Source: Lysobacterales bacterium
GTDB taxonomy: Bacteria > Pseudomonadota > Gammaproteobacteria > Xanthomonadales > Xanthomonadaceae
Assembly: GCA_038236425.1 (NCBI GenBank)
Contig: JBBRZU010000001.1
Coordinates: 6,006-70,005 of the forward strand
Reading direction: 5' to 3'
DNA: 64,000 nt
A model generated the notes under the pieces. That model saw only the letters and a list, made by a program, of their open reading frames with translations, ran no database searches and had not been told where the DNA came from. A program made the translations under genes and the position numbers. Below, piece by piece: positions 56,218 to 64,000 of this stretch. The number at the start of each line of letters is the position of its first letter. Positions within the stretch are counted from its first letter, which is position 1.

Positions 56218-57048
56218 TCAGGCCAGGCGCGCCAGCACAGCCTCGGTCGGACGGCTGAGGTTCAGCGTGTAGAAGTGCAGCTCGGGCACCCCGGCGTCTA
56301 CCAGGCGGCGGCACATGGCGGCGACCAGGTCCGCGGCGAACTCGCGCACGCCATCTGCGTCGTCGCCCAGGGCCTGCATGCGCTTGCCGATCCAGCGCGG
56401 GATCTCGGCGCCGCAGGATTCCGAGAACCGTCGCAACTGGGTGAAGTTCGAGATCGGCATGATCCCCGGGATGATCGGCACCGTGACGCCAAGCGCGCGC
56501 GCCTCGTCCACGAAGCGGAAGTAGGCGTCGGCATTGAAGAAATACTGGGTGATGGCGGAATCGGCGCCGGCGTCGATCTTTGACTTGAAGTGGAGCAAGT
56601 CCGCGTGGGCGTCATCGGCCTGCGGATGGATTTCCGGATAGCAGCCCACTTCGATGCGAAAGTGCTTGCCGTGCTCGGCGCGGATGAATTCGACCAGGTC
56701 GGTGGCGTGGCGGAAGTCGGCAGTGCGCGCCATGCCCGACGGCAGGTCGCCGCGCAGCGCGACCACGCGGCTGCAGCCCAGCTCGCGGTACTGGCGCAGC
56801 AGCTGGCTGATCTCCTCGCGGGTGCCGCCCATGCAACTGAGGTGCGGCACGCCATCGAGGGCATGGTCGTGGCGCAGGGAGCGCACGGTTTCCGGGGTGT
56901 AGCTCAGGGTCGAGCCGCCGGCACCAAAGGTCACCGACACGAACTCCGGTGCGTGCGTCTTCAGCCGCCGCACGGTGCGGTCGAGCTGGGCGCGCTGCTC
57001 ATCGGTCTTGGGCGGGTAGAACTCGAAGCTGACCGGAATCTGGGACAT
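56218..57048 (-). CDS. metF: 5,10-methylenetetrahydrofolate reductase
   Basis: SFEFYPPK, SVTFGAGGST, ALRGD, ITQYFF, LHFYTLN. Confidence 0.97.
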   Translation of the reverse strand: MSQIPVSFEFYPPKTDEQRAQLDRTVRRLKTHAPEFVSVTFGAGGSTLSYTPETVRSLRHDHALDGVPHLSCMGGTREEISQLLRQYRELGCSRVVALRGDLPSGMARTADFRHATDLVEFIRAEHGKHFRIEVGCYPEIHPQADDAHADLLHFKSKIDAGADSAITQYFFNADAYFRFVDEARALGVTVPIIPGIMPISNFTQLRRFSESCGAEIPRWIGKRMQALGDDADGVREFAADLVAAMCRRLVDAGVPELHFYTLNLSRPTEAVLARLA

Positions 57049-57084: not shown

Positions 57085-57110
57085 AAAACCCGGGTCAGAG
57101 TCGACTTTCT
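57085..57110 (+). repeat. 26-bp RAYT-associated repeat, copy 1 (forward)
   Basis: AAAACCCGGGTCAGAGTCGACTTTCT. Confidence 0.93.
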
Positions 57111-57309
57111 TCCAGCTTTGCTGCCACGGTCCTTGTTTCGGGTTTCACGAACGCACTCTGACCCCAGTTCCTGGGCCCTGGTTTCTGGCCTGCTTTCTGT
57201 AGGAATTGCTGTTCCGAAACATTCAGTATCCGGGTGCCAGACTCCAACAGTGCCTCCGCTTCATGCTCCCAAGACCATACTCCCAGGACAACGCGACGCA
57301 GCGGAGCAA

Positions 57310-57361
57310 GGACTGAGCACGGCGGACTGAGCACGGCGGACTGAGCACGGCGGACTGAGCA
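57310..57361. repeat. 14-bp tandem repeat x~3.7 (GGACTGAGCACGGC)
   Basis: Identical consecutive units upstream of the ChaB RBS. Confidence 0.92.
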
Positions 57362-57389
57362 AGGTCCTTGGCCCCCTGAGGAAATCAAC

Positions 57390-57617
57390 ATGCCATACGA
57401 ACGCATCAGCGAACTGCCCGATTCTGTCCGCGACCATCTCCCGAAACATGCGCTGGAGATATACAAGGAAGCCTTCAACAGTGCATGGGACGAGTACAAG
57501 GATCCGGATGATCGCCGCGGCGATGCTTCGCGCGAGGAAACTGCGCACAAGGTGGCTTGGGCAGCCGTGAAGCACAAGTACGAGAAGGGCGACGACGGCG
57601 ACTGGCATCCGAAGTAG
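57390..57617 (+). CDS. chaB: ChaB family protein
   Basis: MPY...LPDSVRDHLPKHALEIYKEAFNSAW...AHKVAWAAVK. Confidence 0.92.
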   Translation: MPYERISELPDSVRDHLPKHALEIYKEAFNSAWDEYKDPDDRRGDASREETAHKVAWAAVKHKYEKGDDGDWHPK

Positions 57618-57619
57618 GC

Positions 57620-57763
57620 GTTGCCCGACCGGCCGAGGTTTCGGTCTCGAAGCAGTTCGACGGCTATGTGTGGTTCAACGAAACCCACGCGATTCCACGT
57701 CTTCCCATCCAGGGCAGCGGATCCAGCCGGGGCGTTCCCGATAGCTGCCGGTTTGGCCTGTAG
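57620..57763 (+). pseudogene. C-terminal remnant resembling erythromycin-esterase-family proteins
   Basis: KQFDGYVWFNETHAIPRL...VPDSCRFGL*, resembles the QFDxYxWFDET...P.TYPFGL tail; no start codon or RBS. Confidence 0.55.
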
Positions 57764-57921
57764 GCCGGGGTTGGCTCCGTCGGCGCCTGCGGAAACGATT
57801 CCAGCGATGGGCCACCTCGTCCCGCGGGCCGATTTCGCGCCACTGAAAACGTCGCGGGCAAGGCTTCAATTTTCGGCTTTGAAAGCAGCGCTCTGACCGG
57901 GCTGCTAGACCCGGCTTTCAT

Positions 57922-57945
57922 AAAGTCGACTCTGACCCGGGTTTT
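57922..57945 (-). repeat. RAYT-associated repeat, copy 2 (reverse)
   Basis: AAAGTCGACTCTGACCCGGGTTTT; overlaps the oxidoreductase stop codon. Confidence 0.93.
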
Positions 57946-58969
57946 AGGCGCGGATTATGCGTTTGCCGAAGTTTTCGCCTTTGAGCAGGCCGATGAAGGC
58001 GGCTGGGGCGTTCTCGAGGCCCTCGATGACTTCCTCGCGATAGCTGATTTTTCCGCTTTCTATCCAGCCGGCCATCTCCTTGGCGAACTCGGGGTAGAGG
58101 TGGCCGAAATCGTCGAAGATGATGAAGCCCTGCATCAGGATCCGCTTGCGCAGCATCTGGCCCATCAGCCAGTTCATGCGGTCCGGACCCGCCGGCAATG
58201 CGGTGGCGTTGTACTGCGACACCAACCCGCACAACGGGATCCGCGCATTGCTGTTGAGCAGCGGCAGCACCGCGTCGAACACCTTGCCGCCGACGTTTTC
58301 AAAATACACGTCGATGCCATTCGTGCTCGCCTTCGCAAGTTGCTCGGCAAAGTCGTCGGCTTTGTGGTCGATGCAGGCATCGAAACCCAGGGTGTCCACG
58401 GCATACGCACACTTGTCCGGACCGCCGGCGATGCCGATCACACGGCAGCCGAGCAGCTTGCCGATCTGGCCGACCGTCGCGCCGACCGGTCCGGTCGCTG
58501 CCGCGACTGCAATCGTTTCGCCCTTTTTGGGCTTGCCGATCTGTATCAGCCCCGCCCAGGCGGTGAAGCCGGGCATGCCGAGGATCCCCAGTGCCCATGA
58601 CGGATGCGTGGGCGACGGCCCCAGCCGGGTCACACCCTTGCCGTCGGACAGCGCATAGTCCTGCCAGCCACTGAAGCTGAGCACCCAGTCGCCGGCCGCA
58701 TAGCCATCCAGATTGGAGCGCACCACCTGCGCGACCGTGCCCCCGACCATCACCGCACCGATCTCGACCGGCGCTGCGTACGACGGCGCAGCGCTCATCC
58801 GCCCGCGCATGTAGGGGTCCAGCGACAGGTATTCGGTGCGCAGCAGCATCTGCTTGTCGCCCGGCTCGGGCACCGCGCCGTGCTCCATGCGGAGTGTCGC
58901 CTCGGTTGGTTCGCCCTTCGGGCGCTCGGCAAGAAGCCACTGGCGATTGCTGTCGGTTTGCTGGGACAT
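57944..58969 (-). CDS. NADP-dependent oxidoreductase (MDR, CurA/YncB-like)
   Basis: LSLDPYMRGRM, LGILGMPGFTAW, AATGPVG, YFENVGG, GENFGK. Confidence 0.93.
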   Translation of the reverse strand: MSQQTDSNRQWLLAERPKGEPTEATLRMEHGAVPEPGDKQMLLRTEYLSLDPYMRGRMSAAPSYAAPVEIGAVMVGGTVAQVVRSNLDGYAAGDWVLSFSGWQDYALSDGKGVTRLGPSPTHPSWALGILGMPGFTAWAGLIQIGKPKKGETIAVAAATGPVGATVGQIGKLLGCRVIGIAGGPDKCAYAVDTLGFDACIDHKADDFAEQLAKASTNGIDVYFENVGGKVFDAVLPLLNSNARIPLCGLVSQYNATALPAGPDRMNWLMGQMLRKRILMQGFIIFDDFGHLYPEFAKEMAGWIESGKISYREEVIEGLENAPAAFIGLLKGENFGKRIIRA

Positions 58970-59007
58970 ATGGATTCCTTTCAATTCTGGGGAAGATTAA
59001 AACCCGT

Positions 59008-59033
59008 AAAACCCGGGTCAGAGTCGACTTTCT
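59008..59033 (+). repeat. RAYT-associated repeat, copy 3 (forward)
   Basis: Identical 26-mer, preceded by a duplicated TAAAACCCG (58998-59006). Confidence 0.93.
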
Positions 59034-59390
59034 CCTGGCTCGAAGGTCGGCGTCGTGTGCCCTGGCTCCTCCACCTTGCAGGCGCCGTCGACCTCAAGAC
59101 AGACGGTGGCATCAGTCGCACCGATGCAACGCCGCATGTGCCCGAGGATCAGCATACGCGTTGAAAAACAGGCCTGGCCCGGGTATCTGTCTGTGGCATC
59201 GCGGAGCGGGAAGCGCTTCCCGATGAAAGAGAACTCGCCCTTGGCATCTATTGTGGCGATTCGGGTCAGACCCAAACCTTACTCCGTTTCCCACGCCTGC
59301 TCCGCCGGCCTGCACCGATGACACGACCGTCGTTTTGCGTACGTTCCGCCACCATGCGTTCTATTGGCGAAAAAGGACAAGGAGACTGCC

Positions 59391-59513
59391 ATGGCCCAGT
59401 TGCGCATGCGACTCACCGCCAGTGAAGACGACACGATCCAGCTGATCAACCGCATCTCATCGCCGCATGGCATCGAATCGGTCGTGGTCGATGACGAAAT
59501 GCATTTCGGCTGA
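59391..59513 (+). CDS. 40-aa small ORF or truncated gene (MAQLRMRLTASEDD...)
   Basis: Strong AAGGAGA RBS, ATG 59391, TGA 59511; below the ORF-track length cutoff. Confidence 0.5.
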   Translation: MAQLRMRLTASEDDTIQLINRISSPHGIESVVVDDEMHFG

Positions 59514-59643
59514 CCACCCGTCGCGCCACGGCATCGTCGTCCAGACCGTGCTTGCTGTACCCAACGAGGCATTGCCGCATCCGCGTCCGCCCGGACCATA
59601 GCCGTTCACGTTGCGACGACAGCGCCAGCGGTGACATGCGCCC

Positions 59644-60219
59644 ATGCGATTACGATTCCTCGCCGCCTTGTTCCTGTCCTGCAGCCTGCCCCTGGCATCG
59701 GCCGCCTCGGTCCCGGAGTCCTCCATGCGCACTCTGATCGGTTTCGACAACAGCCCGCAGGAACCGCACTGGGTCGCGGTGAATGATGGCGTGATGGGTG
59801 GTCGTTCGAGCGGCGGCCCGACGGTTGCCGATGGGGAGCTTGCGTTCCGGGGCGAGCTTTCGCTGGCTAACAACGGCGGCTTTTCATCAGTGCGCAGCGT
59901 GGGCCGCGACTTTGACCTGAGCGATGCCTCCGTGGTTGTCCTGCGGGTGCGTGGCGACGGCCGCCGCTACCAGTTGCGGCTGGCCACGGATGCCCGCTAT
60001 CGCGGCGTGCCGGTGTCCTATGGCGCCGGGTTCGACACGACCGCCGGCAAGTGGACCGAGGTGCGCATACCGCTGGCGTCGCTGGAGCCCACGGTGCGCG
60101 GTTCCAGCCTGCGAGGCCCGCCGTTGGACCCGTCGCAGGTGCGCGAGATCGGCCTGCTGATCGCGGACAAGCGCGAAGGCAGCTTCGCACTTTCCGTCGA
60201 CTGGATCGCCCTGGAGTAA
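59644..60219 (+). CDS. CIA30 (NDUFAF1-like) family protein, secreted
   Basis: WVAVNDGVMGGRS, LSLANNGGFSSVR, RGDGRRYQL. Confidence 0.92.
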   Translation: MRLRFLAALFLSCSLPLASAASVPESSMRTLIGFDNSPQEPHWVAVNDGVMGGRSSGGPTVADGELAFRGELSLANNGGFSSVRSVGRDFDLSDASVVVLRVRGDGRRYQLRLATDARYRGVPVSYGAGFDTTAGKWTEVRIPLASLEPTVRGSSLRGPPLDPSQVREIGLLIADKREGSFALSVDWIALE

Positions 60220-60244
60220 AAACCCGGGTCAGAGTCGACTTTCT
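60219..60244 (+). repeat. RAYT-associated repeat, copy 4 (forward; downstream end of the transposase)
   Basis: Identical 26-mer; overlaps the CIA30 stop and encodes the transposase C-terminus and stop. Confidence 0.93.
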
Positions 60245-60942
60245 CCCATCTCTCCCACCGACTTCCCGGGCCGCCCGATCTTCTGTGGCCCCACAGTTCT
60301 GCCAAGCTGCGCCTCGATCGCCAGCCTGAATCGATCCGGGCCATACGGATGCTGGCGCTGCAGGTGGCGGCGGATGGCGTCCACTTCTTCGGCGTGCACG
60401 GCTGCGTTTACCATCGCGCGGTAGCGCTGCTGGCGGACGGCGTCGTCGGCCGAAAGCGCCAGGTAACCGGGATGCGGACTCAGCAGCGGGTCGGCCTCGC
60501 CGAAGGCCAAGGCGCGGTGGCTGGACCATGGGTAATCGCGAGGATCGGCGACCATCGCGGCGCGCAGGGGATTGAGTTCGATGTAGCGGTGGCAGTGCAT
60601 GAGGTGGGCGCCACCGCCGACCAGACTGGCCTTGTAGCGACCCTCCCACAGCGTGCCCGTGCGGCGGTGCGCGGTGTTGATGTAGCGGACATAGCGCCGC
60701 CCGAGCGCCTGCATCATGCGCGTGACTGCGCCGGGTACGGTTGGGGTCAGCAGAAGGTGCACATGGTTCGTCATCAGCACGTAGGCGTGGACCGCGCAGC
60801 CCTCGCGCCGGGCCATGGCCTTGAGTTCGCTGCGGTAGCACAGGTAGTCGGCGTCGGTGAAAAAGCACGGCTGGCGGTCGTTGCCACGCTGGACGACGTG
60901 TTGCGCGATGCCTGGGAGATCGATGCGCAGTGGACGGGGCAT
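60229..60942 (-). mobile_element. Y1-HuH tyrosine transposase (RAYT / IS200-like)
   Basis: MPR..R...HVVQRGNDRQPCF, LMTNHVHLL (HuH), RTGTLWEGRY, YIELNPLRA (catalytic Tyr), YPWSS; flanked by inverted repeats. Confidence 0.93.
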
Positions 60943-61026
60943 GGCGGGGGCTGCTTGATGGGCTATGCCGAGGATGGCAGCCAGCCCATCACGCGCCTAT
61001 CGGGCAAGCTCGATTGCCGAGGTCAG

Positions 61027-61051
61027 GAAAGTCGACTCTGCCCCGGGTTTT
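61027..61051 (-). repeat. RAYT-associated repeat, copy 5 (reverse; upstream end of the transposase)
   Basis: GAAAGTCGACTCTGCCCCGGGTTTT, one mismatch. Confidence 0.92.
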
Positions 61052-61134
61052 TCTGTCACGGCATTACTTCGGCGTTCATCAGGCAGGTTTAATCTGGACA
61101 TGAACGGAATCGTGTTCATCCTATGGAGAAGTAT

Positions 61135-61281
61135 ATGTTGTGGACCATCGTGGCAATCCTGTTGATTCTCTGGCTGCTCGGCTTGCTGACATCCGTTGGC
61201 GGCTCACTTATTCATGTCTTGCTGGTTATCGCCGTCATCGTGATCGTGGTGAAGCTGGTGACTGGACGCAAGGTCCTCTAG
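61135..61281 (+). CDS. Small lmo0937-family membrane protein (48 aa)
   Basis: GGAGA RBS; MLWTIVAILLILWLLGLLTSVGGSLIHVLLVIAVIVIVVKLVTGRKVL. Confidence 0.88.
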   Translation: MLWTIVAILLILWLLGLLTSVGGSLIHVLLVIAVIVIVVKLVTGRKVL

Positions 61282-61582
61282 CCTGGCGTTGCAACGTCGC
61301 ACAGATGTCCCAGCGGAGGCTCCCAGCCTCCGTTGTTTTATGCAGGCCCTGCGCTCATGGAGGCTGGAAGCGTTCCAGCTTGAAGAGTGCGCGCCCACGG
61401 GCAGATGGCGGCCAGGTGGCGGAATCCAACTGGCCGGCCGGCCGCGCAATCGATGACTGGTATCAACCGGTCGCCTCGTCGATCGTGAATTTCCTGATCC
61501 TGCGGTACTTCCTCAAACTCAGGAAACATCAAGTCGACGAGAGTCGCAACGATGATCCCGGCAATACTCGAAGGTGGTTGCG

Positions 61583-62518
61583 ATGTCGACAAGGAACTCC
61601 TCGCGCAAGGTGGTCTACGCCGCGCTTGCCGGCAACTTGTTGATCGCGATTTCCAAGTTCGTCGCCGGTGCGTTTTCTGGCAGTTCGGCGATGTTGAGCG
61701 AAGGAATCCATTCGCTGGTCGATACCAGTAACCAGGGCTTGCTGCTCTACGGCCTGCATCGCGCGAGCAAGGCGCCAGATGCGAGCCATCCCTTCGGCTA
61801 TGGTCGCGAGCTTTACTTCTGGAGCTTTGTCGTCGCATTGCTGGTGCTTGCGCTCGGCGCAGGAATGTCGGTGTATGAAGGTGTGACGCACATCCTGGAT
61901 CCGGAGCCGGCCGGCCATCTGACGATCAACCTGATCGTGCTCGGCGTCGCGTTCGTATTCGAGGGCACCACCTGGACGATCGCGCTGCGGGAGTTCCGGA
62001 AACGCAAGGGTGCGATGGGGTATTTCGAAGCGTTCCGCAAGAGCAAGGATCCCAGCACGTTCACCGTCCTGCTCGAGGACAGTGCAGCCCTGCTTGGCTT
62101 GTTGATTGCGGCGGCGGGCCTGCTGGCCGCGCACTGGCTGCGGATGCCGGTGCTCGACGGCGTGGCTTCGGTCTGCATCGGAGCGGTGCTGGCCGCGAGT
62201 GCGCTGCTGCTCCTGCGCGAGACCAAGGGCCTGTTGATCGGTGAACCGGCATCGCAAGCGGTCGGAGAGTCGATTCGCGCGGTTGCCGAGCAGGACGACG
62301 ACGTACGTCATGTCAACGGACTGTTGACCGTGCAGATGGGGCCGCAACAGGTGGTTGCGGCCCTGAGCGTCGAGTTCGAGAACGAACGCACCACGCAGCA
62401 GATCGAGGCATGCATCGACCGCATGGAACAACGGATCAAGTCCCATCATCCACAGTTGCAGGCTTTGTTCGTCAAGCCGCAGACGCCAGAGGCGTGGCGT
62501 GAGCGGCGCGGAACGTGA
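61583..62518 (+). CDS. Cation diffusion facilitator family transporter
   Basis: SSAMLSEGIHSLVD, HPFGYGRE, EDSAAL, LDGVAS. Confidence 0.92.
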   Translation: MSTRNSSRKVVYAALAGNLLIAISKFVAGAFSGSSAMLSEGIHSLVDTSNQGLLLYGLHRASKAPDASHPFGYGRELYFWSFVVALLVLALGAGMSVYEGVTHILDPEPAGHLTINLIVLGVAFVFEGTTWTIALREFRKRKGAMGYFEAFRKSKDPSTFTVLLEDSAALLGLLIAAAGLLAAHWLRMPVLDGVASVCIGAVLAASALLLLRETKGLLIGEPASQAVGESIRAVAEQDDDVRHVNGLLTVQMGPQQVVAALSVEFENERTTQQIEACIDRMEQRIKSHHPQLQALFVKPQTPEAWRERRGT

Positions 62519-62585
62519 CCGGCATTTGCGGCCCCGACTTTTCTGAGGCATCAAGGGAGCGGGGCAGTCGGCCTTCAGGGGCAGG

Positions 62586-62608
62586 AAAGTCGACTCTGAC
62601 CCGGGTTT
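62586..62608 (-). repeat. RAYT-associated repeat, copy 6 (reverse)
   Basis: GAAAGTCGACTCTGACCCGGGTTT, immediately followed by the CAGGAG RBS of the next gene. Confidence 0.93.
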
Positions 62609-62620
62609 CAGGAGTTGTGC

Positions 62621-64000
62621 ATGTCACCGATTGACGCCGGCTTTATCCTGCTTGGTCTGGTCCTGGCGACGGCACTTGTGTCGCGGCGGATCAGTATCCC
62701 GGCGCCCATCGTGTTTGCCGCAGTGGGCCTCGCCGCGGGCGCCGCCTGGCATCTGGTGCCGGGCTTGCCGGCGGTGACGATGCCACCCGACCTGGTGTTG
62801 TTCGTCTTCCTGCCACCCCTGCTGACGACGGCGGCGTATGCGCTGCCACTCGAAGCATTCCGTCGGAACCTGCTGCCGATTGGCCTGTTGGCCGTGGGCC
62901 TGGTCATCGCCACGATGGGTGTGGCCGCGCTGGTCGGCCACGCGCTGGCCGGGCTGCCATGGGCGGCGGCAATCGTATTGGGCGCGATCGTGGCGCCGCC
63001 CGATCCGGTCGCGGCGACGGCGGTGGCCGGCAAGACCGGACTGTCGCACCGGCTGGTGGTGATCCTGGAAGGCGAAGGCCTGGTCAACGATGCGGTGGCC
63101 ATTTCCGCCTACGGCATCGCGCTGTCCGCACTGGTCGCCGGACACTTCAATGCGTTGGATGCGGTGTGGTCCGTGCTGCGCGAGGCACCGCTCGGCGTCG
63201 CGCTGGGCTTGGCGGTCGGTTGGTCAGCCGCATTCATCCGGCGGCGCGCGGACAGCGTGCCAGTGGAAGTCGGTATCTCGCTGGTGGCGCCATACCTGGC
63301 TTATCACGTTGCCGACAGCATTGGTGGGTCAGCGGTGTTGGCGGTGGTGACGCTGGGCATGCTGCTGCGTGCGTCGTCGTCCAAGGTGTCGTCGCCGGTG
63401 GCGCGCCTGGCGGCTCGCACCGTGTGGAGTTTCCTGGGCTTCGCCAGTACGGCGGCCGTCTTCCTGTTGCTGGGCGTGCTGATGGGCCAGCTCATCGTGG
63501 ACTGGCCCGGCGAGGGACTGATGGTCGCGGGCGGCGTGCTTGCGGCTGCGATCATCGTGGTGCGCCTGGCCTGGATGCTCGTGGTGCCGCGTCTGGTCGG
63601 GCGCTTGCGGCGCAATCCGGGGCCGGCGCCCACTCTGGGCGAACAGGTGGTGATGGGTTGGGCCGGCATGCGCGGCGTGGTGTCGCTGTCACTCGCGCTG
63701 GCGCTGCCGTTCTCGCTGGATGTCGATGGCACCCTTCGCGCGACCATCATTTTCCTCACGATGGTGGTGATCGTTGTGACGTTGTTGTTCCAGGGAATCA
63801 TCCTGCTTCCGCTGATCAAGTGGCTAGGCGTTGGCGACTCGGCGCGCGAGCAGCGCGAGGAAGCTGAGGCCAGGGCGCTGGCCGGGCGCGCGGGCGCTGA
63901 CGCAGCGGCGGAAGCGCACCTGGCGTCGGCGGATGCGGGCAATCGCCGGACGGAGAAACATCAGGACCTGGTTTCGCGGATTGCCAGCGGGCACGTCGGC
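62621..64000 (+). CDS. CPA1 family Na+/H+ antiporter (partial; continues beyond window end)
   Basis: Read manually: MSPIDAGF..., FVFLPPLL, GAIVAPPDPVA, ILEGEGLVNDA, GWAGMRGVVSLSLAL. Confidence 0.92.
   Translation, partial: MSPIDAGFILLGLVLATALVSRRISIPAPIVFAAVGLAAGAAWHLVPGLPAVTMPPDLVLFVFLPPLLTTAAYALPLEAFRRNLLPIGLLAVGLVIATMGVAALVGHALAGLPWAAAIVLGAIVAPPDPVAATAVAGKTGLSHRLVVILEGEGLVNDAVAISAYGIALSALVAGHFNALDAVWSVLREAPLGVALGLAVGWSAAFIRRRADSVPVEVGISLVAPYLAYHVADSIGGSAVLAVVTLGMLLRASSSKVSSPVARLAARTVWSFLGFASTAAVFLLLGVLMGQLIVDWPGEGLMVAGGVLAAAIIVVRLAWMLVVPRLVGRLRRNPGPAPTLGEQVVMGWAGMRGVVSLSLALALPFSLDVDGTLRATIIFLTMVVIVVTLLFQGIILLPLIKWLGVGDSAREQREEAEARALAGRAGADAAAEAHLASADAGNRRTEKHQDLVSRIASGHVG

Follow-up and report, generated by a model that had tools for sequence, protein, structure and literature searches.

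What do six near-identical copies of a short repeat do among functionally unrelated genes of a bacterial chromosome? The locus that raises this question lies at the end of a 64,000-nt stretch of a Lysobacterales genome (hereafter the window; contig C1 of genome G000), where the repeats surround and bound a Y1-HUH transposase gene. An earlier note on this DNA had viewed the locus as a gene-cassette array in which the enzyme accumulates passenger genes. We consider it probable, with moderate confidence, that a known type of element, a TIRtron, has let its terminal inverted repeats (TIRs) pile up in a native and already variable stress-gene cluster, where they would act as occasional cut-and-join points and have moved the gene CIA30. 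In this reading the reshuffling follows incidentally from end processing and is not the work of a dedicated capture system.

A search for the 25-mer at 0-1 mismatch recovered six copies within 5.5 kb, three on the plus and three on the minus strand, and none elsewhere in the window; 100 shuffles of the window gave 0 matches. The degenerate copies that had been reported near 57155, 57881 and 59262 were confirmed as decayed cores or arms (cores at 57156, 57891 and 59263), and the repeats at 57085 and 57155 form a single decayed doublet. Copies 4 and 5 are inverted repeats on either side of the Y1_Tnp gene (60218-60243 and 61027-61052, 26 nt, 96% complementary), which makes the repeats the transposase's own ends. 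The gene labels of the earlier note were also borne out by Pfam and NCBIfam (ChaB, CurA-type NADPH oxidoreductase, CIA30, DUF5670/lmo0937, CDF, and Na+/H+ exchanger).

The transposase (TIRYT) has 237 aa, the motifs NHVH, WE, YIELNP, and SS (with H60-V-H62 and Y120), and a match to Pfam PF01797 (E 2.6e-13). It is under purifying selection (ratio of nonsynonymous to synonymous substitution rates, dN/dS, 0.18 against the sister species G085), and its predicted model (pLDDT 90.7) has TnpA-REP (4ER8, E 5e-9) as best fold match. The signatures of TnpA-Y1 subclass 2.1 are NHVH, W[EQ], YIELNP, a proximal SS and a length of about 238 (PMC6006769). With all motifs and the length matched, the protein belongs, as judged from its sequence, to subclass 2.1, an assignment made with Table 1 of that paper and not with its authors' hidden Markov models. 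The subclass is linked there to the TIRYTs of PMC3733652, it equals RAYT Group 1 (10.1101/119735), and proteins of subclass 2.1 or Group 1 occur in about 15% of strains (PMC6006769). As to the C-terminal helix-turn-helix-like extension of subclass 2.1, helices are predicted at 158-213, but Pfam gave no helix-turn-helix match. The NCBIfam models for RAYT (NF047646, 67.4, cut-off 80) and IS200 (NF033573, score 22, cut-off 55) both remained below their cut-offs.

By its architecture, a single Y1-HUH gene between inverted 25-bp ends, the element classifies as a TIRtron, and not as a REPtron, an IS200 element or an integron. Like TIRtrons (PMC3733652), it places a protein with these motifs and this length between long TIRs of which the downstream one overlaps the gene end, its TIR family is moderately abundant with dimers and clusters, and the genome carries two TIRYT/TIR families. 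Its flanks are TIRs and not the GTAG/GTGG-tagged stem-loop repetitive extragenic palindromes (REPs) of REPtrons (RAYT groups 2/3). With IS200/IS605 (PMC6006769) it shares the HUH/Y1 core and the predicted single-stranded DNA (ssDNA) chemistry; unlike them it has YIELNP and not Y---Q, TIRs and not subterminal hairpins, no tnpB, and one copy, which sits at the same locus in G085.

The evidence for a gene move comes from G085, which is 88.9% identical to G000 over 393 kb aligned and has the order metF-TIR-CIA30-TIR-ChaB-TIR,TIR-oxidoreductase-TIR,TIR-TIRYT-TIR-CDF-NhaP-TIRs-TrmY. CIA30 has therefore a different position in the two genomes, lying in G085 between metF and ChaB with direct TIRs on both sides. 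At its downstream junction homology covers the CIA30 stop codon and the whole repeat; from there on, G085 matches what G000 has after copy 1. G085 also lacks copy 6 and, at the outer end of copy 5, the lmo0937-like gene. A third genome, G073, carries next to zwf a 100-aa gene, a 90-aa gene, MgtC, CDF, NhaP, two open reading frames, one TIR, and TrmY. The window keeps deleted remnants of the 100-aa, 90-aa, and MgtC genes, the first two in swapped order. Since putting the remnant-plus-CIA30 unit back into its G085 position restores the G073 order, the move most likely took place in the G000 line.

The features of the variable block, which spans metF to ahcY (C1:72857-74281, past the window end), are the following:

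56218..57048, minus: metF, core gene and left border
57085..57109, plus: TIR copy 1, left arm of the decayed doublet
57141..57170, minus: decayed partner (right arm) of copy 1 in this doublet
57205..57323, plus: 90-aa gene remnant (upstream region fused to 3' end), intact in G073:C102
57390..57617, plus: ChaB, dN/dS 0.13 against G085
57881..57900, minus: decayed tandem TIR; two near-intact tandem copies at the same place in G085
57921..57945, minus: TIR copy 2, its outer tail overlapping the oxidoreductase stop codon TAA; same neighbours in G085
57944..58969, minus: CurA-type NADPH-dependent oxidoreductase
58998..59006, plus: 9-nt stub, a tandem duplicate of the copy 3 outer tail
59008..59032, plus: TIR copy 3, left border of the unit that G085 lacks here, having a tandem pair of TIRs 40 bp apart instead
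59262..59273, strand not assigned: degenerate near-palindromic TIR core, possibly a collapsed remnant
59328..59513, plus: 100-aa gene remnant, internally deleted; G073 has the intact gene ahead of the 90-aa gene, MgtC, and CDF, and G006 has it adjoining TrmY
59644..60219, plus: CIA30, stop codon fused to copy 4
60219..60243, plus: TIR copy 4, downstream terminus of the TIRtron, with the transposase stop codon inside it; the CIA30 move has its downstream crossover here
60229..60942, minus: TIRYT, Y1-HUH transposase, 237 aa
61027..61051, minus: TIR copy 5, at the upstream end of the TIRtron; the CDF start is ~30 nt from its outer end in G085
61135..61281, plus: lmo0937/DUF5670 membrane protein, not at this place in G085 or G073
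61471..61565, plus: 3' remnant of an MgtC-family gene, intact ahead of CDF in G073
61583..62518, plus: CDF transporter
62585..62609, minus: TIR copy 6, inserted late between CDF and NhaP, which in G085 and G073 are separated by a few nt
62621..64000, plus: NhaP-type Na+/H+ antiporter, continuing past the window to C1:70206

Within this block, a 14-nt tandem repeat of about four units occupies 57310-57364, and sequencing runs X4 and X5 are one unit short. An S-adenosylhomocysteine (SAH) riboswitch precedes ahcY (L111:6327-6417), and after it come a Schlafen-group-3 helicase gene and a number of toxin-antitoxin-like gene pairs; this riboswitch was the only Rfam match, with none in the block itself. 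A terminator scan did not call the doublets, its loop limit of 8 nt making it uninformative here. No RNA sample was listed as carrying the locus.

Where do these genes come from? Because G073 holds the intact genes and CIA30 is distributed through the genus, the block is best described as a relocated and eroded native stress-gene cluster and not as a set of foreign cassettes. CIA30 is widespread in the genus, with a TIR beside it in none of 16 other loci, and in 7 of these TIR-free loci TrmY is at most 2.6 kb away. Copy 6 entered the CDF-NhaP pair late, as G085 and G073 keep the two genes in the same order without an intervening repeat; such a repeat-free order in relatives is what the earlier note had named as speaking against its proposal.

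The alleles of other insertions indicate what is inserted and what is left behind. NhaP ends, in G000, in a perfect A5-CCCGGG-T5 palindrome, a collapsed doublet common to it and TrmY and the only such palindrome in the genome; the same junction has three TIRs in G085 and one in G073. At the C171 site the situation is reversed, with a doublet in G000 and a palindrome with the same derived stub in G085, and the C143 site is naive in G085, with the tails missing. Because filled, collapsed, and naive alleles could be compared, the comparison shows, at the level of sequence, that the inserted unit is the whole doublet including its tails, and that the palindrome is the collapsed leftover after loss of the doublet's inner part. 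Stubs (short tandem duplicates of the tails) occurred at 26 of 80 doublet ends against a background of 4.3%, with clear units of 7-14 nt at 20 of 68 doublet ends (G000 and G085 together). Run X5, from a near-identical strain, shows one extra stub (9 nt, at copy 6, 62601) and also differs by one at C51:11277. Mirror-image flanks of at least 4 nt were present at 4 of 40 doublets (p 0.002), a figure partly due to one contig-end case and not used as evidence. We also considered whether the doublets are internally deleted TIRtrons and rejected this, as the similarity of their spacers to the inner flanks of the TIRtron was not above that of shuffles (z mostly <2).

Doublets of this kind resemble those of the REPIN/RAYT system (PMC3337134), in which palindromic leftovers also occur: they are inverted, of conserved length, with variable spacers, and the enzymes have a related fold (4ER8). 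Unlike REPINs, the arms lack a GTAG/GTGG tag and do not form stem-loops singly, copies number about 34 and not hundreds, and the GTGG-type REP family of G000 is separate from the TIR family. This REP family has about 199 copies at 107 sites genome-wide, none of them in the block.

Mapped over the genome, the TIR has 34 copies, of which 28 lie outside the window on 9 other contigs; 26 of these make up 13 inverted, REPIN-like doublets (mostly 62-76 or 37-42 bp long), giving 15 sites outside and 21 in all. The expectation of the earlier note that the repeat would not be scattered uniformly was correct, since another site lies within 5 kb of 15 of the 21 (1.25 expected; none of 5000 draws came that high), and of 9 of 15 when the window is left out (0.62 expected). 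This null is uniform and ignores the placement of intergenic and accessory DNA; under it, ordinary REPs gave 43 of 107 against 28.9 and the second TIR family 3 of 17 against 0.8. A cassette array is not supported by this distribution, for the repeat is a dispersed doublet family that occupies the gaps between genes, whether accessory (a rhodopsin-carotenoid cluster) or core (rpmB, ubiE, and amtB/ubiK), and one single copy even lies in icmF. Specifically, a fused icmF-type mutase gene (C31:15848-19468, L113:7848-11468) contains this TIR in frame, reading EKPGSESTF, with an in-frame GTGG-REP doublet about 300 nt past it. A bacteriorhodopsin-like gene and carotenoid genes lie between two TIR doublets at C51:3971-11274 (L112) and were not found in G085.

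The TIRYT gene is single-copy in G000. Its next homologue there, 48% identical, belongs to a second TIRtron (C22:12734-13547, L121) whose separate TIR family numbers 48 copies at 17 sites; a homologue of this second protein lies at the same place, after MacB-type permeases, in G059. TIRYT homologues occur in 63 of 83 genus genomes and its TIR in 9 of 83 (these tallies, like those of the 100-aa gene and of the ahcY-metF gap range, include the unpublished genomes G013 and G089, on which nothing else in this account depends). Public collections yielded 158 homologous loci, 129 with enough flank and 102 of these with flanking inverted repeats; the top named homologues are from Lysobacterales, the plasmid homologues (8 records) are all <50% identical, and the TIR pattern was not found in viral contigs. 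The TIR core of the window (CGGGTCAG) agrees with GGGGWSAS at 7 of 8 positions, variants in G078, G002, and G073 match it fully, and GGGWSAS is present in 77 of the 102 homologue TIRs. Among 29 homologous loci with full 4-kb flanks, 14 have extra TIR sites and 5 have at least three. One homologous locus, L087:8660-13177 (G048:C4), holds two TIRYT copies and same-orientation TIRs between small open reading frames of low GC content without Pfam matches, and is more array-like than the window; L214, L143, L223, L257, and L258 show a similar stacking of TIRs.

Could such loci be cassette systems, in which the transposase captures and stacks gene-plus-TIR units as an integron does? An integron has intI beside its array, one recombination site per cassette in one orientation, attC hairpins, and excision of circles. 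Like integron arrays, the window has unrelated genes separated by short repeats, sites that coincide with stop codons (those of CIA30 and the oxidoreductase are fused to a TIR tail), and one relocated unit, CIA30 with its downstream TIR; in addition, one locus swaps genes between the same TIR sites, and at L087, L214, and L143 same-orientation ends are stacked between genes. Unlike an integron, single arms form no attC-like hairpin, sites and genes occur in both orientations, the cargo is native and operonic, and no IntI is adjacent. The only match above the TIGR02249 cut-off, an integron integrase at C56:16026-16967, is on a contig with no copy of the TIR. The native and partly eroded cargo, the CDF-NhaP pair that is older than copy 6, and the TIR-free CIA30 loci of the genus all argue against capture, as does the plain doublet form of 26 of the 28 outside copies. 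Closeness to stop codons (where a gene ends toward the outer side of a TIR, the stop is within 25 nt in 12 of 14 cases) is also common in ordinary REPs (45 of 83), and no extra TIR lies within 4 kb in 15 of the 29 homologous loci. No credible excision joint turned up on the block among contigs from four runs (three studies), nor on C51 among those from four runs, although contigs drop rare variants and cannot show rare circles. Apparent joints (e.g., 57108 to 57922) had sides of at most 26 nt and foreign spacer letters, in one case those of the C31 spacer; they represent other doublets and not excisions. A dedicated cassette system is therefore very unlikely, and the array of accumulated passenger genes proposed earlier is not supported. 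We regard as distinctly unlikely the related idea that TIRYT is an ssDNA recombinase acting on any two ends, with gene-plus-TIR circles being reinserted, which would make it an HUH counterpart of integrons working on host stress genes.

Breakpoints of gene order coincide with repeat ends at other sites as well. The gene gabT and its doublet are both absent in G085; an S41 peptidase gene of G000 is 5'-truncated, cut at the outer end of a TIR, and G085 has ArsR and AHSA1 between the same two TIR sites; and the C64 doublet marks the end of synteny with G085. In a hand count, 16 of the 21 sites of G000 were evaluable, the five without a G085 counterpart (three on C31 and two on C51) being dropped, and a break at the repeat was seen at 8 of these 16 against 27 of 140 plain wide gaps (p 0.010). 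An automated junction test gave 5 breaks and 4 unchanged junctions for the TIR (p 0.022 against plain gaps, 0.22 against REPs), but it miscalled genes of the CIA30 area, hence the hand count. The gap control covered 69 of 360 G085 contigs, and both genomes are incomplete (81% and 90%).

Several observations weigh against a role of the ends in gene moves. Counted as independent events, breaks fall to 5 of 12 against 27 of 140 (p 0.13), or against 5 of 18 for REPs (p 0.46), neither of which is significant. The upstream junction of CIA30 is off the repeat, by 37 nt in G085 and about 570 nt in G000, and neighbours are unchanged relative to G085 at copies 2 and 6, C51:3661, C107, C171, and C24. G085 lacks the 8 kb that separate the C23 and C143 doublets; the breakpoints are 35-80 nt from these and free of TIRs, which means that variable borders can form without TIRs. 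Near-identical strains keep the gene order of the window, and contigs of run X3 bridge all six copies. Finally, a near-identity of about 25-33 bp could permit exchange without any enzyme.

Some of these points fit mere co-location, in which doublets are tolerated in the gene-end gaps of otherwise variable regions and the matching breakpoints are incidental. In addition to the TIR-free C23/C143 deletion, the C64 gap differs among G000, G085, and G073 with a TIR in G000 only. The ahcY-metF gap ranges in the genus from about 50 bp to 16 kb and, contrary to a role in gene accumulation, varies with or without TIRs. Among 40 such gaps read, which were chosen mainly by size, 10 had TIR-type repeats by the patterns used, 5 of 11 gaps >2 kb (the other 6 having none) against 5 of 29 (p 0.10). 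In L287 (G006:C50:32050-48450) and L294 (G014) this gap is filled by 15-16 kb tandem arrays of paralogous ~620-aa genes, with no TIR found by these patterns in the L287 array. The CIA30 exchange, on the other hand, ends inside the 25-bp repeat, and same-strand TIRs flank CIA30 at both of its positions. Because gaps measure several hundred bases and the crossover falls within a 25-bp repeat, a chance match is improbable, and we consider co-location alone very improbable too.

A further alternative is that the transposase merely deposits the repeats, and that exchange between same-strand copies, whether RecA-dependent or by slippage, later moved or removed CIA30 and the other genes (e.g., through tandem duplication and subsequent deletions). 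The crossover inside 25-33 bp of near-identity agrees with this, slippage across a hairpin with CCCGGG direct repeats on either side would produce the collapsed palindrome, and the eroded genes of the block were deleted internally, away from TIRs. Homology alone is, however, insufficient for the junctions of lmo0937, gabT, and the truncated S41 gene, each of which abuts the outer end of one repeat while the opposite breakpoint lacks a copy, and outer-end stubs are frequent and strain-variable. We see passive exchange as possible but doubtful.

The explanation we favour remains one in which the ends are processed by the transposase itself. With its intact HUH and tyrosine motifs, its conservation, and its predicted TnpA-REP-like fold, TIRYT may nick ssDNA near the outer A/T tail and join the resulting 5'-phosphotyrosine end to a free 3'-OH, by analogy with TnpA-REP, which cleaves and rejoins single-stranded REP DNA via a 5'-phosphotyrosine (PMC8266576). 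Whole doublets with their tails would in this way appear at new sites, often at a stop codon, and inner loss would leave A5-CCCGGG-T5, as the alleles indicate. Copies are dense near the TIRYT gene, where the enzyme probably acts in cis. The relocation of CIA30, with its downstream junction inside the repeat, may have begun with transposase nicks and run, between same-strand copies, through a circle or through successive duplication and deletion, and occasional end-to-end joining would move or drop neighbouring genes.

The TIRtron itself is thus already known, though little studied; the reshuffling at its ends is likely, and integron-like capture, which we hold to be improbable, is not supported. 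In the available portions of the published accounts TIRtrons are described without biochemistry and without the gene moves at TIRs and the series of filled, collapsed, and naive alleles seen here. A literature search that left most subscription papers outside its reach returned only two works that name TIRYT, and it found no test of what subclass 2.1 or Group 1 proteins cut or move and nothing pointing to gene shuffling at TIRYT ends. The locus offers concrete substrates for such work: the enzyme's cognate TIR, a set of alleles (filled, collapsed, and naive) between which the likely cut positions are narrowed down, and a gene move whose crossover falls inside the repeat. If the enzyme is not responsible, the TIRs would be a REPIN-like family whose copies seed rearrangements passively; if it is, the widespread TIRtrons would be an unrecognised source of local gene shuffling.

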